Shown here: positions 14,604 through 64,000 of the stretch, piece by piece | How positions within the stretch are numbered: position 1 is the stretch's first letter | Layout of the letters: each line of letters opens with the position of its first letter | From: Yuukianura sp. NJ FZ-2021 | Taxonomy: Eukaryota | DNA: 64,000 bases | Direction: 5' to 3' | NCBI GenBank assembly: GCA_046563655.1 | Contig: CM102285.1 | Location: 14,446,001-14,510,000, forward strand | Program-made: the position numbers and the translations under genes | Notes under the pieces: generated by a model | The model's input: the letters and a program-made list of their open reading frames with translations, nothing else | Databases searched by the model: none | Told to the model about the DNA's origin: nothing

Positions 14604-16913
14604 ATGAAAATTAATGGTCGGAGGTAAATTTTTTCATTTTTGAAATTTGACCTTTCAGTGACCTTACGGCTGAAATGAAGCGGAAAGCAAAACAGCAAGA
14701 AAGAGCGGAAATTTTGGAAAAATTGAGATTAGATTTGGAAAAAATCGTGAGATTTCAAAGAGCCAAAGCCAATTGGATTCGACTGATAAATAGAGTTCTC
14801 GTAAGACATTTTCAAAAAAAATATGCAAAAATGAAAGAAAGTAGTTTTTAAAAATTTTGAAAAGGTCTTGGGCAGAAGACAAACTACGCTGAAAAAAGCT
14901 GTTAAATGGATTTTGCGAGAGATGGAGCTGAAGAGAAGCGGAAAAGAAGTGAAATACATTCGGAAAATCCTGAACAGTTACAGCATGGAATGTGTTTTCA
15001 CTGTTTCAAAAATGGCAGCAGTGCGCAGACGTCAGGACAAAAGTGACCGTGACCGTCTTGCCGACATTTTACTTAATACCGTACCGCCGGAAACACTGGA
15101 ATACCGGTACGCCAAACCGACTTTGTATGAACGGCTCATGGGCAAAGGAAGTCCGGTTCCGGAAGTAGACAAAGCTTTTATGGTCATGCGTATAAAGAGA
15201 CATCTTGGTAAGTTCAAAATTTCAGTTTTTAAATAAAAGAAGTTAGAAAAGTGAAAAATCTGCAAGTGTTTGTTTAAATTTTGAAATCTTAGGGTTAGAT
15301 TTTTCAAAAGACTCCGAAACTTGGTTGCGCCTGACGCGCGAGCTGGACGAAAAACGCCATCGTCATTCCGTTTTTCAAGAAGAACCGCCCGTAGAATTTT
15401 TCTTTGACCACGGTCCATCCACAATCCGTGTGATCATGTTCAAGGGTAAAGATCACTCCATATTACGCAACCTTCAACACCCCCATCCACCTTTAGTTCA
15501 AGTCCCGCAGCGTCAAATTCGTCAACGTGCAGGTCGTGCATTGTGGACTTACTTGAAAAATATCGTCGTTTTGGAGATGCGGAAAATAGATGCTAAGAAA
15601 TCCAGATCGAATCGGTCCGTACGTATCGCCAAAACTCCGACAAAACCGAAATTCGCGTCGTCAAAAGTCGCTCCTGCTCCTAATAGCGCGAAATCGTCAA
15701 AGTCAAAAGTCGCTTTTGCTGCTCCTAGCTTGAAATCGTCAAAGTCAAAAGTCGCTCCTGCTCCTACTAGCACGAAGCCGTCAAAATCAAAAATCGCGCC
15801 TCCCGCGCGTACGTTATTTTCAACATTTCAGCAGTGGTACTTCAATTGCGACCCACGTCGGTACAAAATCTCACGGAAAAATACTTTTCTGATGGCAATT
15901 TTGGATAAAACCGGGTTTAAAGAAGACGTCAAAAATCGTTTCGCGCTTATTCTTCCCCCCGAAGGCGCGTATAGGCCTCCAGAAGAAGTTGTAGCCTACA
16001 ACGCCCCAGGCGTTTACGAAGTCACTTATGCTCGTCTTAAGCCTTACTATGACGCTATGGCCTTGGAACAAGAATACCGGGAGAGATTCGACCAAGGTCA
16101 AGAGTTGACCCAGTCAAGGTCAATGACCTCTACTGCTAATGTGGCCGAAACTAACAGAGTCAGAGACCTTCGGCTACCGAGGATTCGCCAAGTTCCGGGA
16201 AAAGGGCGTTCGGACGTTGACGCTCCGAAGGCGCGAAGAAACGAAACAGCTGATTCTGGGAGAACCACCGAAGTTAGATTTTCGGATAGCGCGGTTTCGG
16301 ACAGGAAAAAGAGAGAAGTGACGATAGAACTGCCTGGAGGTGTCCAAACCCTGTATACTGATTCTTTTGTATCGACGTCTGCTATTGGTCGACGCGCCCT
16401 CCACCCGGGAGATGATGATTGGCTGGAACATCACATGATCAAAACAAGGTGGAAGTCTAAAGATTCCGTTGCCTCTATTGCTGAACTCGCTCGCACGAGG
16501 TCGCAAGTTTACTCTGAAAAGGCTATGGCCGCTTACCTTCAAGGAGAAAAAAGTAAAATGTCAAAACTTTTCAAAATCTTGGCATTTTATGAAAAAAATC
16601 GTTTTTTCTTGGAAAAGTTTCTATTTTTTCTTTAATTTTGAACAGTTAAGAAAAAGGGGCTCAATGAAGACGACGAGTTCTTCTACATCCGTGAAGGTGC
16701 GTTGATTCTTTGAAGTTATCAAAATGTTTTTTTTAAATTCAAAGTTTCAAAATTTTAATTTCAAAATTTCAATTTCAAAATTCTGTGGGAACAGGAAGAG
16801 GGCTAGTTGTAGAGCCGAGAAATGGGAGACAAGAGACCAGTGACACGGCAATTCCCTTCGGCTCTAAACTATTTCAACTATTTCCGAAAAAATCTAATAA
16901 CTTTAAAAAATAA
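14604..16913 (+). CDS. Uncharacterised Lys/Arg-rich protein (a separate gene, or a C-terminal extension of the SLC6)
   Basis: Phase-consistent exons of about 14604-14623, 14659-14800, 14865-15207, 15292-16552, 16646-16696 and 16795-16913, including the 436-aa ORF. No family recognised. Confidence 0.6.
15658..15805 (+). repeat. Coding tandem repeat, about 42-nt unit (SSKSKVAPAPxSxK-like), about 3.5 copies
   Basis: tcgtcaaagtcaaaagtcgct... is repeated; the translation is SSKVAPAPNSAK SSKSKVAFAAPSLK SSKSKVAPAPTSTK PSKSKIAPP. Confidence 0.8.
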
Positions 16914-16968: not shown

Positions 16969-19900
16969 TTAATTTCCATGGAGCAATCTATTTTCCTCCA
17001 TGACCTGAGCCGTGACCGTCGCCAACTGCGGAGTTCCGCCTGTCACTTGGTCCAGTTTTTGTAAAATGCTTTGAAACTTTAGTGAAATGTCGCTTCTCTT
17101 CTGGTCACTTTGACCTCTGACCTCACTTTGACCTTTGACCTCAACTTGACCTTCACTTTCTGTGCTTTTGGTGGAACTTGAAAATGCTTTACGCATTTTT
17201 GAAATTGTTCCGATGGACAACCCCGGCGGATATTCAAAAGTGTAGAGAAGAATCGGTTGTGGTTCTTCCTTGGTCGATAGTAGACCAATCACGACGTAGT
17301 GGTCAAAGGGATGATACCTTAAAATATAATATATTATAGAAATTCATTATTTTTAATATATTAATTTAAATAATATAAGTTATTACGTCACACTAGACAC
17401 AACGCTGTTGGGATGATCTGCTGGATGGATTTGAGACAGCAGCCTGCCAGTATCAGCGTCCCAAATCAGCAGCGCTGAATTTTCGCTGCCGCTTAAAACA
17501 AGATTTCCACACGGACTGAGCACCGATTGCAAGCGGTACCTTAAGAATTGAAATTTTCAAAAAATTCGAAATTTTGAAAAAAAGTTTTTAGAAATTTCAA
17601 TTTTGAAAGACTGACCTTTCATTAGCAACTCCTTGAAAACTATTTAGAACCAGAAAAGTTTCAATGTCTAAGATTTTTAAACAATTTTGAGAAAGTTGCA
17701 CAAGAATTTTCCGTCCAGTGGAATCCAGACACAGAGAAGTAATCGCTCCATGTCCAAGCGATACCAATTTGGTTTCTCTAGAAGGTCAAAGGTCAAAGGT
17801 CAAATTTCAAAATTTTGAACTTTTTAAAAATTGTTGTTAAAAAAATGTTACTTTTCAAGTTTTGGCGGTTGTCTATGCTTTCCTTTAGACAATTGCCACT
17901 GACAAAGCGTTCCTTTTCCATCGCCACTAAATAAAACTTGGCCATTCGGATGAAATCGGACAGAGTTGATGTAACTGCGATGTCCATTTAACTAAAATTT
18001 TGAAAATTCAAAAACAAATTTTTCCAAATTTCAACTTTTTGAAAAGGGAAGTTTTGCACTTGCAAGAAAAATCGGAGCACTTTGTTCAATATTGACATCT
18101 TCACGTTCAATTGTGTTTTGCAGTTTCCAAATCCGGATGACCGAATCGTAGCACCCAGTTGCCAAAAACGATGGAACGATTGGTGAAAACTCCAAAGTGT
18201 AAACATACGTCGGATGAAGCAAAATTGCAATCGGTTTTACTCCGATTTCGATTTCTTCCAGTTCTAATTTCCAAATTCGCACAGTTGAATCTGCCGAAGC
18301 AGATCCAATTGTGTAACAATTTTCAGAAATCCGACTCCAGTCCAATTCGTAAATCAAGCCATGATGACCTCTCAGACTCTTCAGTAACTTCCCACTAGGA
18401 ATCTAAAAGAAAGCAAAGTTTCAAAATTTCAAAAAAAATCAAATTTTGAAAAATTTTACCAACCTCAAAAATTAGAACAACGTGGTAGCGCTCAGTGTCC
18501 AGCCCAGCTCCAAGCAGGGTTCCGCAAGGACTGAATTTTACACACTGAACGTTTCCCATTACACGAAAATTGAGCGAATCAATCTCAGATGCTGGAAGCG
18601 ATTTGAGAAGTTTGTTGGGCACTTTGCAACTTTGACCGGGAAAACGCTTCCACTGCGGTCCTTGTTTTCTGGTGACCTCTTGTGACTTTTGACCTTGACC
18701 TTGAGCCAGTTGACCTTCAATAAGAGCTTCAGTCAACTCACCTTTCTTCATGTTCAGCAGTGTGGATAAAGTGAACTTCGGAGACTTGTGTTCCGGTTCT
18801 GGCGGCAAAATTGACTTCAGAGTGACGTAAAGCGTCGAATTCAATTTTGACCACCGTTTGCTTCTCCACCATGCAAAAACCTAAAATTAAAATAACTTAT
18901 TAAACGTTAAGTTAGGTTTAGGTCTGCGGGAAAGCTGTGTCATTTTTTTGCCTTGGGTTTTGACTTTTTGACTCACATTTTGTTTTTGACCCGTGAAATA
19001 TTTTTTTTAAATCTATTTTTTGACTCTTTGTATAAATTTTGACATTGTACTTATGTTTTTGGTTTGATTTTTGATTTGATTTAAAATTGTTGACTTTGAT
19101 TTACATTTTGAGTTTTTGCCAATGTTTTGGCTGACTTACATTTAGACTTTTTGCCGATATTTTGACTTTGATTTACGTTTTCACTTTTTGCATATATTTT
19201 GACTTTGACTTACATTTTGACCTTTGGAGAAATCCGGTCGATAGAGTTGAAGTCTCAGTTTTCTGTTGACATGGCGTGTGCCGTGTACCCCCAGGGGTTT
19301 CAAAAATGCCCAACCAATTTTATGCCATCCAAGATCCTGTTGTTTTCTAGAAGGACGCTGCAGACTTTCGTGACCCATTGGCACAAAATCCATAATTTCA
19401 AAAAACAGGATCAAGGGGTCATCGGAGTTTAGAAATTTCTGAAGTGGTTCTGCCACCACAACCATTTCTTCCCACTTTGGCAGGAGGCGATACACTCCAG
19501 AACCACTGAGCAGTGATGGACGAGTCATGATTTGTTGGACACAATTTTTAGTCAGTGTAGGTTCGGAGTGACCTTGACCTTGACAACTTGACCTGACAAC
19601 GTAATGACCTTCCGGGGTCATCACTGTGATTCTGACAACGGGATGAGTAATATTTGGATCCGTGGGAAGCAAATCGGTGTGATGAATTTTGATTCCGAGA
19701 ATTTTTTCATTCGGGTCGAATTCCCCGGCTTTTTCGCGTCTTCGGAGATTTCGTTTTGCTGAAGGACTGGCGAGAACTGAAATCGTAGGAGGAGGAGCTA
19801 AAATTGGCGCAGCATCTTCACTTTCACTTTTTAGCGTTTCACTTTTGTCGTTCTTTGATTTTGATTTTCGAGGTTTTGTCGGTTCGATAACTTTCGGCGG

Positions 19901-21019
19901 AATTAGTTCCTTTTCGGTTTGTTTCGGCACAACTTCTTGAATACCGGTTTGTTTCGGAGATTCGCTCGGTACTTTTGATTTTTGAATGGTCTCAACTTTT
20001 TGAACTTTGAGTTCGGAACTTTTTGTTTCGGTTTTCTTTTTCTTCTTGACCTTTGACCTTGACTTTTTCACTTCATCTTCTACTGTCATGACACTTGCAA
20101 CCTCCGACCGTCTGACATGGTCCACCTCTTCAGAAAATTTCTCCACGTCGATATCCTCTTTCTCCTGAGAAGATTTTGTGAAACTTCCCGCCATTTTCTT
20201 GGTCCATTTTTTCAAAAGTGAGGGTTTGGCCTTGACCTTCTTGGAAATTTCTTCTGGCTCTTGACCTTGACCTTGATCTTCAGCCTTGACCTTGACCTTG
20301 GAATATGATGGAGTAGAATTGACAGTAATTGCCAAGTATTCATCCACTGGAGACTTCTCTTTTGCTGCTGATTCTAAGGAACGCAGTGATTCGTCTTCGG
20401 AAGTCACGCAGACTCGCTCGGGAGTGTCCGCTGGAACTCGGGAAGTCCAGTTGCTACGCCTTCTTTCTTTACCGGCCGAAATCGATTTTGAAATTGGACT
20501 TTCGGTCTGAAATAAAACAAAAGCAAAAAAATTTCGTTTGAAGATGTTGAAAATTCAATCAAGTTTTTTATTCACTTTGCTTCGATTGGCAGTCACGTCG
20601 CTTGCAGTTGAAATTGACGAAAGGGGCGTGGCTTGAGGTGAATTTGTGTAGCTAGAGTGAAATGGTGCCACAATGTCATCTTCAGCTGAAGATCCGTCAC
20701 CAGCTTCATACAATTCAGCTGTAGCGGTCACCATGGTCCGAGTTTGTGCTTGCGGTGACCTTTGACCTCTCAAAGTTTTTCGAAATCCTGAAACCGCTGG
20801 TGACTTTAACGTTGATACTTCAACTCCGTCTGCAAAATTGAAAAAAATTTATTTTACATCCAAAATTTTGAAAGTTTTTAGGTTAGCAGATGGATCCAGT
20901 TAGAAACTCTTGGTACCTGATGTAGAATTTGAATCTCTCTCCGGAATCATCACTTTTCTGCCCCTGCCGTGACCTCTTCGATTGACCTTGACCTTCACGG
21001 AATCCCCTGACTCTGACAT
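16969..21019 (-). CDS. AHI1: Jouberin (AHI1): C2-like domain plus WD40 repeats, ciliary transition-zone protein
   Basis: Exons of about 20917-21019, 20576-20829, 19214-20506, 18464-18880, 18058-18402, 17852-17991, 17616-17777, 17388-17539 and 16969-17317. Motifs ILGIKIHHTDLL..D..ITHPVVR, PKWEE, LFFEIMDF, GWHKIGWAFLKPLG..G..VNRKLRLQLY, STLYVTL, WKRFPGQSCKVPNK and LLHPTYVYT...LATGCYDSVIRIW match AHI1. Confidence 0.92.
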
Positions 21020-21186: not shown

Positions 21187-21476
21187 CTGTCAACAAATTC
21201 TCCAAAGTTCTGCGCAGGCTGGAAATCATTGAGCTAGTGACAGTGCTAATTTTTAACTGCCCAATGGGAAATGAATATTTAAATGGCTTTTAGCACTAAC
21301 TGTTAATGAAATGTTAGGTTAATTTTATATTGTTTATGAAATGACGGTCATTTTATGACATCTTAATGTCACTCTCATCATGGATTGTAAAATGTTACAA
21401 TCTACTACTGGATTTGTGAACAACTAACCAAATCTCCGGAGCTGATTCAAACTCAATTTTTTATTTTTAAACGGCC

Positions 21477-23452
21477 ATGTCGGTGTTATTCATTTTTCTA
21501 TCACTTTTAACTTTCTCCATCCAAGGAGATGGACCTGGTTGGATCACACTTTGTACAAAGTCATCGGGGTCACGCAAGGTCAATGCTGGTGGATGTCCAA
21601 GAGGAGTCGTCATGGACAGTCCACAGTTCGTCACTGCAGCTTGTGTCAACGGAGTCTGGATTCTGTCACTTGGGGACTGCGACCTTCAGCCAGTCGTTTT
21701 AGTCGGCAAAGGCAGCAATGACTGCTTCTCACTCGGAATTCAGGTATACACTTTAAAAATATTAAAATTTTGCCAAACTCATCTTGAAATTTTGAATTTT
21801 TTAACAAAGGTCAGCAAGGTCACGTTTTTAGGCAAACCAGGAGACGCTTTTGCTCCGACGGATTACGTTGGTCCGAGCACTTTTAGCGTTTTTTGGTCGC
21901 TCGCAGTTGGACAGAGCTCGTGCGACAAAAATTTTACGTCGCCTGGGCACGCCCTGGTTTCAATCAACTCAGAAAATGTCGTAGAAGTTGTTCAACCCAA
22001 CGGCGACATAAACTGTTGCTCCACCCCTTACGATTTGGCTCCTTCGCTGGACGCAATTCCTCCAGTGAGAATTTGCGTCGGACAAACTCTCCCTGGACAA
22101 TTTTTCCGCGTTCAAACTACGTGTACACAAACTCCTCCCGCAAAATCTCCCCGACCTTTGACCTCTCTGTTCCTTAACTACGGCGACGGAATTCGGATTG
22201 AACAAGGGAAACCAAGTGAAACTTTTTTCAGATTCCACGCTGATGCTAAAAGTCGACGCTGCGCAGATTCTCCTATGACGCTGGAAACAGATTGCTGCAG
22301 TGCTTTAGATTTTGAGGTCAATGACCTTGAAATGGCAACGGCCGAACAGAAGAGAATCGATGACCAAACACGTCGCGTTGCGACGAAGTACCTCCATTGG
22401 TCACTCGGCAAAAGAAAGGCCCCGCCCCTTGACCACTCGGAATTTGTTTACGTCCAGTTCGGACGACGAATCATGGGCCACGTTTGTCCAAAAGAAGAAT
22501 TTCCAGATCAGTTGTCACTAGGAATGCTTCAAATTTTTAAACTTTTGATTGCCGAAACGCTTCAAAATTCTCCGCTTGTCAGAAATTTTGAACAGAAGAG
22601 ACACGATTTCATCGTAGAAGCGCTAAAAAGCTGCTTAAAACATGCGAAAATGGGCAAAAGTTTGAAAATTAATTGGGGTAGTAGTGACGAAGTTTGTCCA
22701 GTAGATGTAAGAAATTTTTGGGAAGTAAAAAATTTGCAATTTTGTTAAAATGTGTTTTCAAAATTTTGAATTTTTGTTCAAACAGGTTCTGAGTGTAAGC
22801 AAAGGTTCAAAAGTTTATGCGGTGGAGACAAATTCAAATGAAACGCTTTTGTACAAAGTGCTTGACTTCCCGCTGGAGGTCATCTGGAAAATTATGACCT
22901 TCACGCACTACTTCTGTGCAAAAGAGTTTAGATCACATCCGGTAAGTATGATTTTTTTTCCTAAAAATTTTGAAATCGTTCTTTCATAAAAATTTTGAAA
23001 ATGGAATTTCGAATTTATTTTTTTGCACAGGTTGACCACTCCGCTCTTATGGTCAGTTTTGAATCCTTCTTCAACTCAGAACTGCTCAAACGGTGGGCCA
23101 ATCCTGGTCGGGCTTTTCAAATTCTGAAACTACTTTTTCCGACAGTCGATCTTCTTCGTGTTGCAACAACAATCGACGCATGCGTCAAGTTTGCCCAAAC
23201 TACTTCCGACTACAAGAAGTGGATTGAACGTCCTGTTCTGACTCCGCTTGGGTGAGTGAACTGCGAAAATCTTTTTTATTTTTTATTTACAATTTTGAAT
23301 TGTGAATTTTGAAAATTTTCAGGCCCAGACCAAAAAATTTCCTGGGACGAATCTGGAACAATTCAGCAATTTGCCTCAACTCGTACTGGGAAGCAAATTT
23401 CAATGACGATTCAATTTGCTTCCCATCCTACACCAACTTCTACAAACAATAA
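21477..23452 (+). CDS. Uncharacterised secreted Cys-rich protein
   Basis: Signal-peptide-like start MSVLFIFLSLLTFSIQG. Phase-consistent exons 21477-21743, 21810-22706, 22786-22941, 23031-23251 and 23323-23452. No family recognised. Confidence 0.7.
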
Positions 23453-40100: not shown

Positions 40101-43100
40101 AGAGTTTTAAGTGCTCCAAATCCACTGAAATCCCTCGCGACAAATTACTTTCTCTACAGTGCTCAATTACCGATTTTAACTTTTTAGCCTTTGTGAAACA
40201 AAGTTTGTTACAAATTTTTCAAAAGAAGAAACTTTTAATTAAAACTCTCTTTTTAAAAGTTCGTGAGTTGTAGAGTAGCTTACAATCTTAAGTTTAAGAA
40301 CAAGCTATCGGAGGGAGTAACTTTCTCCTAATGCGCCACACGAGTGACTGATTTCTCCTCTGCCTCTTTCGTCCAACTTCAAAAAACTCAACACAGTTCA
40401 AACTTTCTCCACGCGCAAACTCTAAATAAAAATTCACCAGAATTTCAAAAATTTGCAATTAGAAAAGTTGGTTCAAATTTGCATCCTCAAAAATCTGAAA
40501 ACATATTCTGTTTCATCTGCAACAAAATACTAATTTCAAATTTTCCATTTCAAATTTCCGAAATGAAGGCAATTTGTTCAAAAAAGTGTAAAGAAAGAGA
40601 AAACAACGGTAGAAACTTTAATGCGAAAAAGGCCGTAAAAATTGCAATTCTGAGCACGTTTTGTTTCCTAATGAACTCCCATTGGTCTTTAGTACTTACA
40701 GAGGAAGAACAACGAATCTAACCTTATGTGATGTAAAAAATAGCATATAAAACATAATAAAATATATTAATATGTAATAAATATAAATAATTCTGACCTG
40801 TGTTGGGCTGACCACCGCTGTTAGGTCTAGCACTAGGGGCACTGTCACGTGCTTCAATGGCCAGTGCATAAGCGCCTTGCTTCTCACGATCAAAAACAAT
40901 TTTCGTAAAAATTTCTCCAGTAAATTCATTCACTTCGAAGAAATCTTTGCCCTCCGAATTCACCACATAGTATTTCACCTGTAAAAATTCAAAAATAATT
41001 ACGAATTAATTGTAATTACTTCAATTCAAAAACCGATAATTACTTGAAACTCAATGAATTGCTACGAATTAATTCCAGGCAGAATTTTCCCCCACGTACT
41101 AAAAACCTTTCCTCACAAAGATTATGAAGTTCACTGGTAACAAACAAGGCAACGAACAACTTATGAAATACTCAAGTAATTACCAAGTAATTACAAGTAT
41201 TTCCCAAGCAATTACAAGTAATTAGTAATTCCTATAAATAATTACCATGCAGTTTTAGGTAGTAATTAGTAATTTTTATAAGTAATTACCAAGTAATCAG
41301 GAACTAAGTACAAGTAATTAGTAATTTTAGAAGTAATTACCAAGTAATTCGTATAAGTAATTACCAAATTGTTTGGGGCAGTTCCATCCTTATCAATTGC
41401 GTTGACCTGTGACACGCGCGTGCCCACTGGTTCCCCTTCGGCGACAGTTTCTTGCTCTCGTTCCGTGAACAGCGGAATTTCATCGTTCACGTCTTCCAGA
41501 ATTATGTAAATCGTCGCTTCAGAGGCAAGTTGCTGGGCTCCGTTGTTCTAAAACCACAAAACCAAAAATCAAAATTTCGAAATCCTTCAAAATTTCAGAA
41601 TTTTCCATTTTACCTCGACTCGAATGGTGAGGTTGTACTCCTTGTTGGTTTCAAAGTCGAGTGGATGGTTGACCTTGATGTCAGCCCATGTGAATCCATT
41701 GTCCTGTCTCTGCTGGAGGTAGAAAGTGTCGTACTTGTTCGTCTGTGCAGTCGACCCACGAATCAACCGATAGAAAACTGTCGGATTCCCTTCAATTCCC
41801 GAACTAAGGTCAAATCAACTCAAAATTAGTACCAATTTTTCAAAAAATACATCAAAATTTCAAAAATTCCAAACTTTGGTTAAGCAGTTATTCAAAAAGC
41901 CAAAAATGTTAAAATGCAAGTCAGCCAATTTGAAAATTGAAAGATCCATGCACTGTAGCTAAATCTACGGTCTAAACTAAATACAGGTTTCAACTGTATT
42001 CAAAAATTTTCAAAAAAAAATGTGCATCACAAAAGTTACAAAATTTCGAAGAAAAATCCAGTTTGTAAAAAACTACAAAAATTACCCACTGGAAAAATTT
42101 CCAAGAATTTCAAAATTTCGTCTACACTATAACAACTTTTTGACTATAAAATTCACAATCAAAATACCAAAATGCAGTACCATTTCACCAAAACCAATAA
42201 AAATCGTTCTAAACAAAATTTCAAAAACAAAGTTGAGTTCAAAAATCCGCAAGAAAAAGTATTCAAAAAGGAGAAGAACACAATGGAACTAATAAACTAC
42301 AATAAAATTTTGAACTCATTTTCAAAAAACTGTTCCACGGACTCAAAATTACCAAAGAGGACTAAATTACAAAAATCACATATTTTTAGTCCAAGTTGGC
42401 GTAATCTAAATAAAAATTCAGAAAAACCAAAATTTTCTGAAAAAAATTATTTCCACCACAGTCACAATAGATCAAAATGCAGTTTTTTTTGGAAGAGCCA
42501 CCGTGACACATTGTTGGAAGTGACCTGACCTTGCTTTGACTGCCACGACCTTTGCCCCCACCGGCATGTTTTCCTTGACGTGGATTGGTCCATAGACGAC
42601 TTGGTCCCACACGGGGGGATTGTTGGCGCGATCCACAACGTCAATTTGAATTTCAACAGTCCGTGACAACGGCGGGAAGCCTTTGTCCTGTGCAATCGCT
42701 TCCAACTTGTAAGTCTCTCGCTAAGGGGTCAAGAGGTCAACGTCATCAAACAAAAATACAACAGCTTACCATACCTATTAGCTATTAGTAACAAATAATA
42801 CATATTTAAATATAATTAGATGTAGTATATTTAAACACAATTAAATATAGTATATTTAACTATAATCAAATATACTATATTTAAGCATATTTAAATATAA
42901 TTAAATAAATCTAAAATCGAAATATTTTAAAACGGACTTATTTTCTAAACTCTTAAGAATTCCAAATTTTAGCAACAGAAGCCCCCTCATGATTTGAACT
43001 TTTTCAGCTGAAAAATCCCAAAGTGGTGCAAAATTCGCAAAAAGCGTTTTCAGCAATTTAGCTTTGGCGTTTTGCGTGAAGTGCAAGTTAGCTTCTGCGT

Positions 43101-46100
43101 AGCGTCAAAGCGCAAGTGCAAAGTTAATTAATTGTGCAAGGTGTGAACTCAATTAGTTAATTAATTAACTAAGGTGCAAAAACGGTAAGATAAACGCTGC
43201 TTCATCGTCCGATTTTAGTAAACCGAGTTCGGCGCGAACAGTGCATGGCGACATTTTTTAAAAAGTCAGGAAGAGGAAGAAAAGTGCTGAAGTTTGAGAG
43301 TAGTTGAGGTGTAAAATGAGTTAGTTAATTAGTTAAAAGTTGATTAATCGTCAGAGCAGAGTGTGAAGCAGGGAGTGTGGACAGACCTTGCTTTAACCGA
43401 AGTGACGACCGTGCCCACCGTCACATTTTCCCTGATGAAGATTGGTCCATACGTGGTGGACTCCCACTTTGGTGGCTTGTTGTTCCGATCCACCACGTCC
43501 AGTTCTACATCCACAATTGCAAACAGAGGCTCCACCCCTTTGTCAGATGCTTGTACTTGCAGTCGGTACTTGTCTCGCTAAAGGACCAGTTCATAACCAT
43601 GAAATTCACACTTTCAAAAATATCAACTTTTCAAAAATTTCAAAAATCAAGTTTTTTCAAAAATTTCCCAAAAATCTACTGTCAAGATACTACGAAAAAC
43701 CCAAAAATTCTTTAACACGGTTTTTCGCTCTTGATGGAACAAAATTCACAAAGTCTACGGCATTCTATTGCAAGCGCTTACATCCACAATTTACAATATT
43801 GTTTCAAAAATCCACTTTTTCAAAAACAAAAAAGAAAAAATCGAGTGAATGAGTGATTCAAAAATCTACGTTTTCAAAAAAAATTGAGTGATTCAACAAT
43901 CGACCTACTCTACAAAAATTCAAAAAATACCACGGAACCTACTAATCACAAAATGACAAATTATAAAAATTACATGTTCATGCGGCATCCAGATTTATCA
44001 AAAACAAAATATAAAAAAAAAAGTTTCAGAATTGAAAAATCGTTGTTAAAAATCAAACCAACTCACGCATGCAAAAAGTTGTTCAAAATTATAAAACACA
44101 AAAAAAAAATCAAATCTGGCCAATGGTCTCTGGGTTTTAAAATTCAAATTCGCATGCGTAACGGTCCAATAAGTTATAGTTAGTAGTAATACGTCCAACT
44201 TCTGGTTTGTCATTTTGGAGTGAACAATGTGGATATGAAACACCATATTTTTCAAAATTTTTATGAAATTATGAAAAGCAACATAAAACAGTCTCGCGCT
44301 GCAATTTTTCCAAAATTTCCCACTTTTCAGTCAAAATCTTCACAAATTTTCTCCCGCCAGCACCAAATTCATCGCCGAAACCGAAACCAAGCTCCATTTT
44401 TTTCCGCTTGAAGCTAATTCGCAATTTTTCGTTGTTTTTCAGTTTTTCAAACCGGTACGTGCACCAAGTTCAAAAAAGTATTGAATTACACACTATTTGG
44501 AGTAGAATTCATGTGACCATGTACCATTACCGATTCCAGGAAGTTGGAAACTTCCTTTAGCTGAAACTTAATACCTTCAAAGTGACTTTTACCTTACTCA
44601 CCTTACTATTTTTTTGTGAAAATGACTTTTGGACCATAGAGTATAACTTACATCGAGCGGTTTCTTGAGAATAATCCAACCAGATTCTGGTTGAATCTCA
44701 AAGTAATCCAAGTCTGCATGATTCTGTGGAGCAGTCAGAGTGTAAATGATGGCTCCATTGTTGTCAGCATCTTCGTCTGATGCTGATACTCGCAGTATAT
44801 TCGTTCCAACACTCGTGTCCTGTTTCACGTTCTCAACATATTTCTGTCCACAAAAAAAAATCAAAAATTTTGGTTACAAATTTTGAAAAAGTAAGTTTAA
44901 AAAATTTTAATTTCAAAATTTTCGTCAGAATCCGACAGCCGACACGGCAACTTCAGCAGAGCACAGCGTCTCGAGGAGTTAAAATTCCGAAAAACTTTAC
45001 CTGGCGGTCAAATAGTGGTCTGAAATACAAAAAAAAAACAGATTTCACATTTTCATCCAAAATCAAAATTTCGAAATCTCAAATTCAAAGAATTCTCCAA
45101 ATTCGAAACACTTTTTGAACTTACGGATTGTCATTGACGTCTTCCAGTTCAACTGTGAAGGAACAAACTCCTTCCAGGGCCGGCTCGCCGTGATCAGTGG
45201 CCTTCACTGTCACTGAAACGAATTTTCCGTCATCTCCCTCCCGATCAAAAACCTAATAACAAAAATTCAATCAACATTTAAAAAATTTTTCAAAATTTTG
45301 CTTCCTAGTTTTTATAAAAATTTTACTTTGTTCGTAATGACTTCTCCAGTTTCTTGATCCACACTGAACTTGGCTCCTTTTTGATTCGGTTGTTGCACAA
45401 TCGAGTACTTGACTTGTCCATTCACTCCTTTATCTTCATCAGTAGCATGGACCTGGAATTTGTAATTTTGAAAATCAAAATTTCGAAAACTTTTTTGAAC
45501 TTTTTAGAAAAATCTCTGACCTTGATAACTGGCGTTCCGTTCGGGGCTCCCTCCATGACTTTTGGGCTGTACGACGAACAATCCTTGAACTTCGGCTTGT
45601 TATCGTTCACATCACTGTTCAAAATATTACATTATAGAGCCTATTTTTTAAAATTTTGTATTCAAAATTTTCAAAATTCAAAATTTTACGTAATGAACAC
45701 GACGACGACAGCCGTCGACGTGTGAATCGTCTTCGGTCCACCTTCGCAACACGATCCGTCGTCAACTGCTGTCACATTTAGCTCGTACTTGTCTCGATCC
45801 AAGTCAATTGCGCCTGCGTGGAGCCGAATCACACCCGTGTAGTCCTCAATCACAAACTGCCCGGACTTGGTTCCTCCTCCCACAAACCCGAATCTACAAA
45901 CATTCAAAATTTCAAAATTTTGAAATTCAAAATTTCATAAAAATCCAAAATTTATGAATTATTTCTGAAATCGTACCGAACATTGTCTCCGTCCTTGTCT
46001 GAAGCTACGACGGTCGTCACAAGTGTATCCGGACCCGCATTTTCGTCAACATTCGGAGTATAAACTTGTTGCGAAAACTTCGGCTCTTCATCGTTCTTAT

Positions 46101-61100: not shown

Positions 61101-63306
61101 TTTTCTCTTTTTGTGCATAGTGTCCGTTACGGACGTCCCTTCGATTATTCAATTTGAGAATTAATTGTTTACGATGAAGGCAGAGACGAAAAAGTACCCC
61201 CCCCCCCTATAAAAAAGTAATCGTAAGGGGTGGGGGACTTGGAACATGGGAGATCCCTTAAGAAGAAGAAGAAAATTACAATGGAAGTGAATTAAAGTGA
61301 CGCAAACAAGAAAGTGGATTTTTATTCTTTCCAATAAAAATCTCCTCTTTGGAGTAGAAATAAATCCCAGGCAAGAGCCCTTAAGTCTCTCTCCAGCCTC
61401 CTTGGATAAATCCAAGATCTTCCAAGTACCCCCGGCTACATTTCACAAAACCTTACAATGGAAGTTACTCATCCTTTGGCTAGGTTAATGCTAAGGTTAG
61501 GTCTCATCCTTAAGCTTTTAAGGTTTAAGGGCCCCCGTCCGATCCGATAAGGGAACAAATAAGGGACACTTAATCATTCTACCTCAACCTCATGTCAAAC
61601 ATCTCCCATTACTCTTTTTCTTCTAAAATTTTGGGACAGTTGGGTGCCCGGGAGTTTCAAACAGAAACCAAAAAAGGCGGGAAATCAAAAATTCAAAAAC
61701 TTTTTCAAATTCGCAAACGAAAATCAGCGCATTCCCGTACGAAAATCTAAACATTCTTGGATTTTCCACACAAAATGAAGCGTAAAACGAAAAAAACGTT
61801 CCAAAAACGTAAATGAAAATTGAAATTTTGAAACTTACCGCTATTCGTTCCCGGATTGGTGATCATGACCCAGAAGTCAATCGTTTTTTCTTGTCCAAGT
61901 TCTTCATAGTCCCACTTTTTCTTAACACGGACTGCTCCATTCGGTTCCACCGTAACCCACGGACTTTCGTCTCGAATTTTAAACGTTTCATGCTCAACTT
62001 CTTTTTTCAATTCAAAAACTACCCGCCCTTCTATCTGAGCCTCCGATTCCAGAAATTCCTTTCGAACTGTCGGCCTAACAGCTCGCGTTACCCGCCTTTT
62101 TGTAATCCGATGTTTATAGACTTCCTCTTCACGGTCATCATCATCATCTTCCAGAAGATGGTTGCCCATTTCCAGGTCTTCATCTGTGTCTCCTTCCAGG
62201 ACAAGCACAACCATACCACTAGTTGTGTCCGGTAAGACTTCCAGAATGTTGTCATCATTGACTAAACTCACATTTCCTTCGTCACTTGTCATTTCCGGAA
62301 GTACTTTGATGAATACTTGTGCAGGTTCAGTGGAGTAAAGAGCCGGTGAGTGGATATCGTGAGCTTGGACTTCCAGATGATAGTCGGTGGCTTCCGGTGG
62401 ATTGACTAACAAGATTTCTCCTGTTTGTGGCACAACGACAAACGGGTGACTACCGGAAGTTAGCCTGTAGGACACTCGATCATGGTCAGCATCCGTTGCC
62501 TTCACGATTCCAACGATCCGAAAACGTTTTGGATTCGTCACGCACGTAGAATTGCCAATTTCCCAGTGATATTCAATGGGATCAAATACAGGATGATTGT
62601 CATTTTCATTTTCAATGGTCACTTTGACCTTGACAAGGGCCGAGTCGACTCCTACTGTATCATAAGCCTTGATGACCAGACTGTACTCTTTCTTGATCTC
62701 CCGATCCAGTATTGACGTTGTATACAGTTGGATTCCTCCGGTAGACTCGTTCATGCTGACATGAAACAGGCCTTTACCGTCTCCACTGACTATTTCATAC
62801 TTCAGGAGTCGTTCCGGATCGGTACTTGGACGAAGCAGTCCCAGTCCGGTCACTTCCGTTCCGATCGGTTGATTTTCAAGAACGAATCCTTCAGAAGTAT
62901 CCTTAGGAAAAGCCAGCATCGCATGACTATCCAGTACGTACAACTGGACTGTGTAAGTCGTTGACACATTTGACTCTGGCTGGTCTTCTCGGACTAGGAG
63001 TGACACTGGATGGTCCACGAGAGTTGACAAGTTGGCAGTGGACATGAGGAGTCCTGAATTGAGGACGGTGAAATACGATGAATATTCGTTCGGTAGGAGA
63101 CGATAAACATGGCCACTGGATCCGCCTTCCAGACCGAACTTTTTGATACTGTAGCCTGGATAGATGTCATGCGGAATTCGGAGCACATTTCTCCTGACGA
63201 TGGCCAAACTAGATGATTCCGGAAGGTTAGTTAGGATGAGCACTACGAAATGGAGAAAGACGAGCCCCATTGTCCCTACTAAAACGTAGTTTGTCCGAAA
63301 GGTCAT
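25176..63306 (-). CDS. CadN: Neural cadherin (DN-cadherin type classical cadherin), complete gene with more than 45 exons
   Basis: Exon 1 (61839-63306) encodes the signal peptide, EC repeats and the processing site [10 protein letters not shown] 12.3-kb intron 1 follows, then phase-consistent exons from 49469-49504 to 25176-25288. They encode EC repeats, the non-chordate domain, EGF-LamG-EGF-LamG-EGF, the TM helix, the p120 site ([15 protein letters not shown]) and the beta-catenin site ([16 protein letters not shown]...[13 protein letters not shown]). Confidence 0.98.
26148..26392 (-). other. CadN: CadN mutually exclusive exon, 18b-like (EGF plus TM, 245 nt)
   Basis: [19 protein letters not shown]...[14 protein letters not shown]; entry phase 2 and exit phase 1, the same as the 18a-like cassette. 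Confidence 0.9.
26748..27185. mobile_element. MITE-like element with 16-bp perfect terminal inverted repeats
   Basis: gagctgggactggatt (26750-26765) is the exact reverse complement of aatccagtcccagctc (27168-27183). The interior is non-coding with ttcca-type subrepeats. Confidence 0.55.
27223..27537 (-). other. CadN: CadN mutually exclusive cassette, 18a-like (EGF plus TM), split into exons 27398-27537 and 27223-27324
   Basis: [29 protein letters not shown]...CPPG / [33 protein letters not shown]; 140+102 = 242 nt, paralogous to 26148-26392. Confidence 0.9.
31839..31841 (-). other. CadN: CadN 3-nt microexon ACA (fourth in transcript order)
   Basis: aacag|ACA|gtaaga; restores ILVQ-DI-NDNAP between exons 31950-32022 and 31640-31753. 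Confidence 0.85.
32509..32511 (-). other. CadN: CadN 3-nt microexon ACA (third)
   Basis: aacag|ACA|gtaagt; restores VALR-DI-NDNKP between exons 32630-32670 and 32396-32415. Confidence 0.85.
32964..33059. repeat. Intronic 24-bp tandem repeat, 4 perfect copies
   Basis: agagtaaaagtaaaagtaaaatca repeated four times. Confidence 0.9.
33546..33548 (-). other. CadN: CadN 3-nt microexon ACA (second)
   Basis: aacag|ACA|gtaaga; restores IRVK-DI-NDMPP between exons 33653-33682 and 33152-33464. Confidence 0.85.
34134..34136 (-). other. CadN: CadN 3-nt microexon ACA (first)
   Basis: tacag|ACA|gtaaga; restores VNLK-DI-NDNAP between exons 34270-34384 and 33749-34051. Confidence 0.85.
34738..34902 (-). other. 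CadN: CadN mutually exclusive exon, 13b-like (165 nt)
   Basis: [55 protein letters not shown], phase 0-0. Confidence 0.9.
36197..36441 (-). other. CadN: CadN mutually exclusive cassette, 13a-like, split into exons 36372-36441 and 36197-36291
   Basis: [23 protein letters not shown] / [32 protein letters not shown]; 70+95 = 165 nt, exactly the length of the paralogous exon 34738-34902. Confidence 0.9.
37385..37760. repeat. Degenerate intronic minisatellite, about 30-33-bp unit
   Basis: About 10 recurring units of aaactcctt-acttttcaga(a/c)attct. Confidence 0.75.
39180..39437. repeat. Intronic minisatellite, about 21-bp unit
   Basis: About 12 recurring gtggagggagtaactatgcta-like units. Confidence 0.85.
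42530..42720 (-). other. CadN: CadN mutually exclusive exon, 7b-like (191 nt)
   Basis: [39 protein letters not shown]...VKA, phase 0-2. Confidence 0.92.
43387..43577 (-). other. CadN: CadN mutually exclusive exon, 7a-like (191 nt)
   Basis: [39 protein letters not shown]...VKA; same length and phases as 42530-42720, so including both would shift the frame. Confidence 0.92.
45001..45019 (-). other. CadN: CadN 19-nt small exon (PLFDRQ), required to keep the frame
   Basis: tttcag|ACCACTATTTGACCGCCAG|gtaaag joins DVNDNP to KYVENV. Confidence 0.9.
48707..49144. mobile_element. Putative MITE-like repeat with ggaac/gttcc subrepeats
   Basis: The ends taggggtgtgaaagttccgttcc and ggaactggaaccttcccacta are imperfect inverted repeats. 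Many internal ggaacggaac units; acccgtcat occurs on both flanks. Confidence 0.45.
55601..56265 (+). CDS. Small secreted protein (150 aa), ricin-B/beta-trefoil-like, nested antisense in CadN intron 1
   Basis: Exons 55601-55732, 55817-55922, 55985-56117 and 56184-56265 are all GT-AG and phase-consistent (453 nt). Signal peptide followed by [14 protein letters not shown]...[20 protein letters not shown] and MKW. Confidence 0.75.
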
Positions 63307-64000
63307 TGCCAATCACTGCACTTCACTTGATTCCGTCCAGAATCAGTTCTGTTTTATACCTGTAAGTTATAAAAAGAAAGGCATTTTAGATAAAAATAGA
63401 CACTGACGAAAAAAAGTCGGAGGGATAGCATCTCTGGATCTTCGAGACGGAAAATGCAATAAGCTCTTGAGATTCCAAGAAGAAGAAAAAAATCGTCGGA
63501 GATTGACTGTTGTTTGGTCGAGGAAGTTCTGAGTTTGGTATAACCCGACTTCCTGGAACAAACTTTTAGCTCGTGCGTATATGAACATCCGAAAACCCCG
63601 AAATACCCGGATCCAACCGAAAGCAAAGGGCTCCCCTGGAAAACTTTGGATTCCACCCGGAACATGACATGCGTGCGGAAGTAGAACGCAAGTTACATTC
63701 GGAAACTATGGTTGGATATAGCCAAGTCACTGCATCCCCCAAAAAGTCCAAAGAAAATGAATAAAAATGTCACTTTGGCACGGTGCGAACCGTCACGGTG
63801 CAAACCGTCGTACTATGCTATTGTTACCTTGTAATTTTATTATTATGATGGATTACGCACGTCACGGTGTGCCATTTCGTGCTAAATGTCAACGGTTATG
63901 TTAAATTTTAAACAAGACTATATCAATTACCATCCCACAAATCGATTACAACGTTGTGTAATCGAATATATCGTTGTGTAATCGTTTTCGATTGAGGTAA

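Follow-up and report, generated by a model that had tools for sequence, protein, structure and literature searches.

The neural-cadherin locus

We analysed a stretch of 64,000 nt from Yuukianura sp. NJ FZ-2021 (assembly GCA_046563655.1, contig CM102285.1, positions 14,446,001 to 14,510,000; hereafter the window), the minus strand of which carries a neural-cadherin gene (CadN) and, in two introns of this gene, a pair of complementary elements that enclose one of two alternative exons and may pair in the RNA. The first large exon of the gene (63312..61747, 521 aa) matches insect and decapod proteins named neural-cadherin with 37–46% identity (E down to 1e-113), the closest named relatives being those of insects and a springtail (43–46% identity), and unnamed relatives reach up to 76% identity. 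An insect CadN protein could additionally be mapped exon by exon from ~63183 down to 25206 by tblastn. Judged by these protein matches, the gene can be regarded as a neural-cadherin orthologue.

Between the constitutive exons 6 and 8 lie two further exons, 7a and 7b (Table 1), which encode cadherin-repeat segments with 49% protein identity and whose open frames are 857 nt apart. The reading frame stays open when either 7a or 7b is joined to exon 8, runs into a stop at codon 140 in 7a+7b+8 and meets a stop at codon 3 in exon 8 alone. Because each exon is 191 nt long, use of both or of neither breaks the frame, and this length therefore supports exclusivity. By its sequence, the cluster consists of two homologous exons in tandem that are equally long and of which only one at a time keeps the frame; their mutually exclusive use is putative.

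A scan of metagenome contigs with an alignment of 7a and 7b yielded 40 loci (given L numbers here), in which 7a, 7b and exon 8 were placed by tblastn. The equivalent exon pair is present in related loci, and the copies correspond across them, the upstream ones being closest to 7a and the downstream ones closest to 7b of the window; the counterpart of exon 6 in L002 matches to 89%. From these comparisons the pair is identified as the exon-7 pair (ME-7a/7b) of arthropod N-cadherin, and the 7a/7b-type exon pair of the initial annotation is borne out by protein matches, exon mapping and frame logic. According to the accessible passages of Hsu et al. 2009 (PMC2655722), three alternative exon pairs of N-cadherin have been conserved for >400 million years, and those of Venables et al. 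2011 (PMC3245913) report that in Drosophila CadN embryogenesis brings a shift from 7a to 7b. Comparison of the gene with itself at E 1e-6 gave 7a/7b as the only tandem exon duplicates; 13a/b and 18a/b were not located.

One of the related loci shows a peculiar spacing of the exon pair. In L008 (1790-2193), the 7a-like and the 7b-like exon lie 24 nt apart (GTATGA...TCACAG). Since 24 nt are too short for an intron, splicing of 7a to 7b is impossible in this locus, and mutual exclusion would be achieved sterically. The first 110 nt past the 7b-like exon contain two UGCAUG sites.

Table 1 Features of the CadN exon-7 cluster in window coordinates; a slash marks the splice site
Feature	Position	Strand	Basis or remark
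Exon 6, constitutive, upstream of the cluster	44652..44858	-	tblastn with insect neural cadherin; donor CGAT/GTAAGT
UGCAUG in intron 6, 496 nt upstream of the 7a acceptor	44073..44068	-	word search
Exon 7a, 191 nt, upstream putative mutually exclusive exon	43577..43387	-	acceptor TTTAG/CGAGAC, donor AAG/GTCTGT
5' arm, selector-like element GCCAUGCACUGUUC	43236..43249, paired core 43248..43238	-	ATGCACTG word kept in relatives
Bulged extension of the 5' arm, window-specific	43209..43237	-	duplex of -36.4 kcal/mol; not conserved in L001, L002
Exon 7b, 191 nt, downstream putative mutually exclusive exon, enclosed by the predicted duplex	42720..42530	-	acceptor CCCTTAG/CGAGAG, donor AAG/GTCAGG
Bulged extension of the 3' arm, window-specific	41957..41986	-	duplex of -36.4 kcal/mol; not conserved
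3' arm, docking-like element ACAGUGCAUGG	41956..41946	-	ACAGTGCATG kept in 3 complete introns
Exon 8, 190 nt, constitutive, downstream of the cluster	41803..41614	-	acceptor CCTTAG/TTCGGG

Two complementary intronic elements

The initial annotation had pointed to ccatgcactgt (41946-41956) and acagtgcatgg (43238-43248) as exact reverse complements, and this is confirmed; 1281 nt separate the two. Read as RNA, the 5' arm is CCAUGCACUGU (43248..43238) and starts 138 nt past the 7a donor, close to the 140 nt given initially, and the 3' arm begins 573 nt past the 7b donor, with 142 nt left between its end and exon 8. With one arm placed after the 7a donor and the other between 7b and exon 8, a duplex of the two encloses 7b, as had been claimed. 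The UGCAUG noted in the 3' arm is likewise present (41952..41947), and in the core duplex, which contains no G–U pair, all six of its bases are paired.

Past the core, a bulged extension pairs 43249..43209 with 41986..41945, giving a duplex of -36.4 kcal/mol with three G–U pairs. The extension as initially described thus does pair in the window, with two of the three G–U pairs inside the range claimed, but it is not conserved in the relatives. In the window, the stem is part of the minimum-energy structure predicted for the entire 7a-to-8 RNA, with a pair probability of 0.998. A comparison of 41400-44700 with Rfam gave nothing near any gathering score.

Conservation of the two arms

Conservation was followed in a clade set consisting of the window and the five loci at least 79% identical to its 7a, namely L001, L002, L003, L006 and L021. 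A common contig-name prefix is shared by L001, L003, L006, L008 and L021, some of which could be paralogues, yet they are separately diverged copies. At four-fold degenerate sites, the five relatives are 20–42% identical to the window, and their introns do not align with it in MAFFT; by this measure, synonymous sites are saturated and neutral sequence is scrambled among the clade loci. The arms were compared by word searches, since their distances differ between loci and MAFFT therefore did not align them.

ATGCACTG lies 140 nt past the 7a donor in the window and 200, 169, 161 and 238 nt past it in L002, L003, L006 and L021, respectively, and the 5' arm of L001 reads ATGCACGG, one change from ATGCACTG, 190 nt past the donor. 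The intron before exon 8 is complete in three of the six clade loci (window, L001 and L002), where ACAGTGCATG is found 576, 581 and 617 nt past the 7b donor. A blind word count returned ATGCACT, TGCACTG and ATGCACTG as the sole 7-mers and the sole 8-mer in at least five of the six introns after 7a, and ACAGTGCATG as the sole 10-mer common to all three complete introns after 7b. The top conserved words of the two introns, ATGCACTG and ACAGTGCATG, are mutual reverse complements. In 500 shuffles, an 8-mer common to at least five of the six introns never arose. The expectation that the arms would be conserved in relatives therefore holds, both cores being kept and still complementary amid saturated synonymous sites. 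Such conservation together with complementarity is what a functional RNA pairing predicts and in part supports it; the two arms probably pair in the RNA and steer exon choice.

When the comparison is widened to the ten loci (window included) that are at least 66% identical in 7a and have at least 350 nt of intron after it, the exact 8-mer is found in five and a form with one change in one; the 5' arm word was not found in the remaining L004, L005, L022 and L027. In L005, the intron after 7b contains a 9-nt word resembling the 5' arm (CCGATGCAC), which was considered and set aside, no convincing partner being found for it. Neither arm was found in the insect-like loci (the L009 group, L010/L013, L020, L025, L029, L030, L035 and L037-39), which makes the pairing appear specific to one clade; complementary 9-mers occur in these loci at chance level by a rough estimate.

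Chance, covariation and alternative folds

By length, the 11-nt pair ranks 25th among the 43 inverted pairs of a 2.4-kb region, and 45 of 200 mononucleotide shuffles of the two introns gave an exact complement of at least 11 nt between them. The duplex of -36.4 kcal/mol is the best among 1845 pairs of 60-nt segments from the two introns, followed by the next distinct one at -31.9 kcal/mol, and none of 59 dinucleotide shuffles reached it (mean -28.9, standard deviation 2.1, best -34.4). Because shuffling removes local G+C-rich patches, we added natural controls, i.e. 74 pairs of neighbouring segments from within this gene, matched in length and spacing and with a G+C of 0.26–0.36, some of which overlap each other. 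Among these, 11 of the 74 reached -36.4 kcal/mol (mean -33.5, standard deviation 2.8). The initial expectation of a duplex energy better than that of controls therefore stands with respect to the dinucleotide shuffles, all 59 of which were beaten, but not with respect to natural pairs, leaving the comparison equivocal. From the window sequence alone, the pairing is not clearly beyond chance, and it exceeds chance only because of its conservation in relatives. A complementarity that arose by chance and has no function, as both the shuffles with complements of at least 11 nt and the natural pairs of equal energy would allow, is nonetheless very improbable, given that both cores persist across loci in which neutral sites are saturated.

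Together with the natural segment pairs, a series of further findings counts against a functional pairing. The six clade loci were chosen once the motif had already been noticed there, and the arms are absent in L005 and L004, which are <79% identical in 7a and have enough intron, as well as in the insect-like loci. The covariation suggested as a check in the initial annotation did not appear, i.e. across the three species with both arms, a comparison of low power, there was no compensatory double change preserving a pair. In the ungapped core, eight pairs are invariant in the three species and three varying positions are each broken in one of them, with a G·A mismatch at one core position of L001, a U·C mismatch at a helix end of L001, where both sides are changed, and a G·A mismatch at another position in L002. 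Arm pairs combined across species are as stable as those from the same species. Global folds of L001 and L002 give the core a probability of ~0, the arms choosing other partners. The extension past the core is not conserved and appears to be at best a feature of the window species. The 5' element, in turn, is conserved for 3 nt past the paired core (UUC), which the pairing in the window leaves unexplained. Finally, nothing that we found explains how splicing of 7a to 7b would be blocked.

Considered by itself, the core amounts to -19.4 kcal/mol in the window, -11.6 kcal/mol in L001 and -20.0 kcal/mol in L002. When it was held fixed and the flanks were replaced by other pieces of the respective introns, 18 of 400 controls for the window, 45 of 400 for L001 and 308 of 400 for L002 attained the real energy. 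The partner preferred by the 3' arm in the global fold of L002 is a second copy of ATGCACTG, 11 nt past the 7b donor (L002:5985-5992), with which it forms 8 bp at -14.3 kcal/mol versus -20.9 kcal/mol, so that this pairing is locally the weaker one. L003 also contains a second copy, ATGCACTGTT (L003:2771-2780), in the 7a-7b intron 150 nt before 7b. The positions of these extra copies are not conserved, and they may hint at turnover or multiplicity of selector-like elements. When intron 6 was compared with the 7a-7b intron for a further conserved pairing, only low-complexity A/T-rich words were found. The initial appeal to competing pairings in the Dscam sense did not hold up, because no conserved competing second pairing was found.

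In L003, L006 and L021, the 5' arm reads CCGAUGCACUGUU versus CCAUGCACUGU in the window. A 3' arm of these loci reading ...GUGCAUCGG, if present, would be a compensatory change, which would support pairing and argue against Rbfox, UGCAUG being lost. A 3' arm reading ...GUGCAUGG, if retained, would contain a bulged G and would favour the view that UGCAUG is kept for its own sake.

The missing covariation, the conservation of the 5' element past the paired core and the lack of the pairing in the global folds of L001 and L002 would also fit a situation in which the arms are separate single-stranded sites, one of the Rbfox type and the other, AUGCACUGUUC, for another factor, with their complementarity being irrelevant. 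The UGCAUG sites without a partner in other lineages, described below, point in the same direction. This explanation needs a coincidence, however, in that the top conserved word of each intron would have to complement that of the other over 8–10 nt, and AUGCACUGU is not known to be bound by any factor, which we count against it as well. We therefore consider separate sites unlikely.

We judge it even less likely that the conserved feature resides in the DNA, as a double-stranded motif ACAGTGCATG that is present twice in inverted orientation, e.g. where a transcription or chromatin factor binds an enhancer within the introns. Such an inverted motif pair is indistinguishable from two complementary RNA arms, and the core contains no G–U pair that would point to RNA. 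Orientation and splice-site distance are, however, kept in every locus, though shared descent alone could achieve this, and the motif has no further copies in the 64-kb window, where the only two sites with one mismatch are within chance. In all three species, the duplex of the transcribed strand is additionally 2.3-4.6 kcal/mol more stable than that of the antisense strand, which is weak evidence because composition favours G–U pairs on the transcribed strand.

Distribution of UGCAUG

In the pooled introns after 7b (15.3 kb from 14 lineage representatives), UGCAUG occurs 14 times versus 3.3 expected (Poisson 9e-6), where this and the following expectations derive from base composition only and the lineages are related. 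It ranks first of 180 hexamers of the same composition, and does so even without the window, L001 and L002, with 9 occurrences versus 2.8 expected (P 0.002). The motif is present in 9 of the 14 introns, among them all 6 complete ones, and in 6 of 11 when the same three loci are left out; the five introns free of it are mostly ended by contig edges. The introns between 7a and 7b (8.8 kb) contain none, versus 1.8 expected. Upstream of 7a, where the window has the site listed in Table 1, there are two sites in L001, three in L002 and one each in L006, L005 and L007; pooled over 20 loci, this region contains 9 sites versus 2.9 expected, none of them in insect-like loci. The initial annotation of an Rbfox-type motif after 7b is thus supported by an enrichment across arthropod loci which persists when the window clade is left out.

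UGCAUG is also found after 7b in loci without the 5' arm (L009, L010, L020, L035, L037 and L008), and the site therefore looks older than the stem. Across the loci compared, UGCAUG after 7b looks both older and wider in occurrence than the stem, of which it appears to form one strand in this clade.

These observations allow the pairing model to be extended. The 3' arm could in the first place be a putative Rbfox-type enhancer of 7b, and the duplex could mainly serve to hide UGCAUG. With the stem closed, the motif would be masked, 7b looped out and 7a used, whereas binding of a putative Rbfox protein would open the stem and lead to use of 7b. The top rank of UGCAUG after 7b with or without the window clade, its complete absence between 7a and 7b and its presence in loci without the 5' arm all favour this extension, and the additional sites upstream of 7a in the clade would fit a factor that represses 7a and promotes 7b. 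A conserved UGCAUG in the intron flanking 7b, as found here, is what would be expected of an Rbfox-regulated exon. The embryonic shift of Drosophila CadN from 7a to 7b (PMC3245913) and the binding of UGCAUG by RBFOX as single-stranded RNA (PMC7404189), both as given in the passages available of these papers, are in keeping with it. A distance of 576–617 nt from 7b is, however, far for a direct enhancer, the enrichment is subject to the expectations and relatedness stated above, 5 of the 14 introns after 7b are without the motif, and no paper linking Rbfox to CadN splicing was found in the literature searched. We therefore put this extension forward tentatively, as a possible rather than a probable one. 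Somewhat more speculative is its evolutionary form, in which an ancient putative Rbfox-type enhancer after 7b would have been captured in one clade as a strand of an RNA switch spanning 1.3 kb, with a 10–11 bp duplex that hides UGCAUG and loops out 7b, and with protein binding versus pairing flipping the choice between 7a and 7b. The 3' arm would then be a docking site gated by a protein.

Further features of the window

Some additional features of the introns were observed. A block of 19 nt (AAAAAAACTGCATTTTGAT, 42471-42489, minus strand) lies ~40 nt past the 7b donor and is identical in L001 (1860-1878); no counterpart was observed in L002, in L003 or in loci further removed, and a near copy is located 300 nt deeper in the same intron (42161-42178). 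Between the 3' arm and exon 8, the block TGGCTGACTTGCATT..ATTTTTGGCTT (41897-41927, minus strand) is 84% identical in L001 (2413-2443); it may represent the branch-point region or an additional regulatory element. An A+T-rich array of ~25-nt units with nested palindromes (arms <=48 nt, 81% complementary) occupies the central part of the 7a-7b intron (42793-42927). A AATTTTTGAAA-type word recurs across the introns (41560-41610, 41830-41880, 43600-43670 and many other places) and is also the commonest common word in the introns of the relatives; contig depth is several-fold higher there, and the word looks like a genome-wide dispersed short repeat.

In contigs from four DNA runs, one haplotype skips 98 nt and has several small deletions in the intron downstream of 7b (42209-42308, 42130-42159), and a divergent haplotype (~3% different) spans the whole stretch. 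Among the haplotype differences listed, none lies within the arms, from which we conclude nothing. Positions 1-22800 of the window hold other genes, with long open frames on both strands (e.g. 19181-20554 minus, 21471-22748 plus and 15247-16635 plus).

Discussion

We propose that the two arms constitute a conserved long-range intronic RNA pairing of the selector/docking type, which loops out 7b and favours 7a, and assign this reading a probability of roughly 55%. It builds on three observations, i.e. the geometry of the arms, the conservation and complementarity of their cores and the frame logic of the exon pair, while we infer the formation of the duplex in vivo and the direction of its effect from geometry and precedent. 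In the proposed mechanism, GCCAUGCACUGUUC, located about 140 nt past the 7a donor, would act as the selector-like sequence and ACAGUGCAUGG, in the intron before exon 8, as the downstream docking-like site. Their pairing, with a core of 10-11 bp and about -19 to -20 kcal/mol, would put 7b and both of its splice sites into a 1.3-kb loop and bring the 7a donor within ~280 nt of the exon-8 acceptor, so that 7a-to-8 splicing would be favoured. With the arms unpaired, 7b would be used as the exon adjoining the docking site, and the frame rule would eliminate double or null products. According to the sequences compared, the pairing is confined to one clade, was not seen in insect-like loci and shows conservation without covariation.

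The closest precedents are found in arthropod clusters. According to Yue et al. 2016 (PMC4691838, citing Yang et al. 2011), 14-3-3 and the clusters of exons 4 and 9 in Dscam have downstream docking sites; the splice sites of srp are drawn together by its downstream pairing (stem II), and with the docking site unpaired the exon nearest to it is used. Measured against these descriptions, CadN is alike in its tandem homologous exons and in an element before the downstream constitutive exon that complements one after the upstream variant. It would also be alike in a pairing that loops out the intervening variant and moves the splice sites closer, with the variant nearest the docking site as the default. 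The docking-like element is, in the loci at hand, conserved next to the flanking constitutive exon in all three complete introns. Unlike these systems, in which a selector beside each variant leads to competition, CadN appears to have a single conserved selector, found after 7a only; L002 alone has a second copy after 7b, and L003 alone has one in the 7a-7b intron. Selector competition is therefore not apparent in CadN, because only one selector is conserved. Further differences are the short core (10–11 bp), the docking element containing UGCAUG, and the lack of a conserved upstream docking site in intron 6, where none was found. As far as the sequences indicate, two features that define the docking/selector class, competing selectors and covariation, are thus missing from the CadN pair.

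Two other systems combine UGCAUG with intronic RNA structure. In Rbfox RNA bridges, reportedly described by Lovci and co-workers in 2013, a duplex is said to carry a single-stranded Rbfox site toward the exon. CadN would share with these bridges a distal intronic UGCAUG >500 nt from the exon and a conserved long-range intronic duplex, but differs from them because its motif lies inside the duplex, so that pairing would hide rather than deliver it. The IAS2-ISAR stem of the vertebrate FGFR2 exons IIIb/IIIc is contained in a single intron and encloses no exon, and the UGCAUG elements for Fox-2 are located outside the stem arms. A mutually exclusive pair and a choice made through an intronic stem that approximates sequences, together with UGCAUG elements, make FGFR2 similar to what we propose for CadN, whereas the putative CadN stem spans introns, encloses an exon and has UGCAUG as part of an arm. 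For approximation, Muh 2002 and Baraniak 2003 are cited in the available passages of PMC4691838.

A vertebrate case with exons of the same designation is ATE1 of human and mouse, for which PMC7797038 describes competing intronic structures R1-R5 at exons 7a/7b, some of them long-range. Two mutually exclusive exons with conserved complementary intronic elements, including long-range ones, are common to ATE1 and, putatively, CadN; unlike ATE1 as described there, where several elements compete for one partner, CadN yielded a single conserved pair.

The CadN exon pair itself and its expression are the subject of Hsu et al. 2009 (PMC2655722) and Venables et al. 2011 (PMC3245913). The term 'secondary structure' has 0 occurrences in the accessible text of PMC2655722, and a mechanism of exon-7 splicing is absent from the accessible passages of both papers. 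Among the papers listed in the literature searched, with most subscription journals outside it, none described an RNA pairing or Rbfox site in the CadN exon-7 cluster, a mechanism for CadN exon-7 choice or a protein-gated docking site for mutually exclusive clusters. Long-range intronic pairing in mutually exclusive clusters is known as such, and what is new is the conserved complementary pair in CadN.

The pair enclosing 7b offers a concrete candidate for the control of exon-7 choice, which can be tested by mutation. CadN would thereby join the few genes whose mutually exclusive splicing is believed to be guided by RNA pairing over long distances. Should the UGCAUG within the 3' arm have a function, the locus would exemplify how a single element can unite a protein site with an RNA switch.

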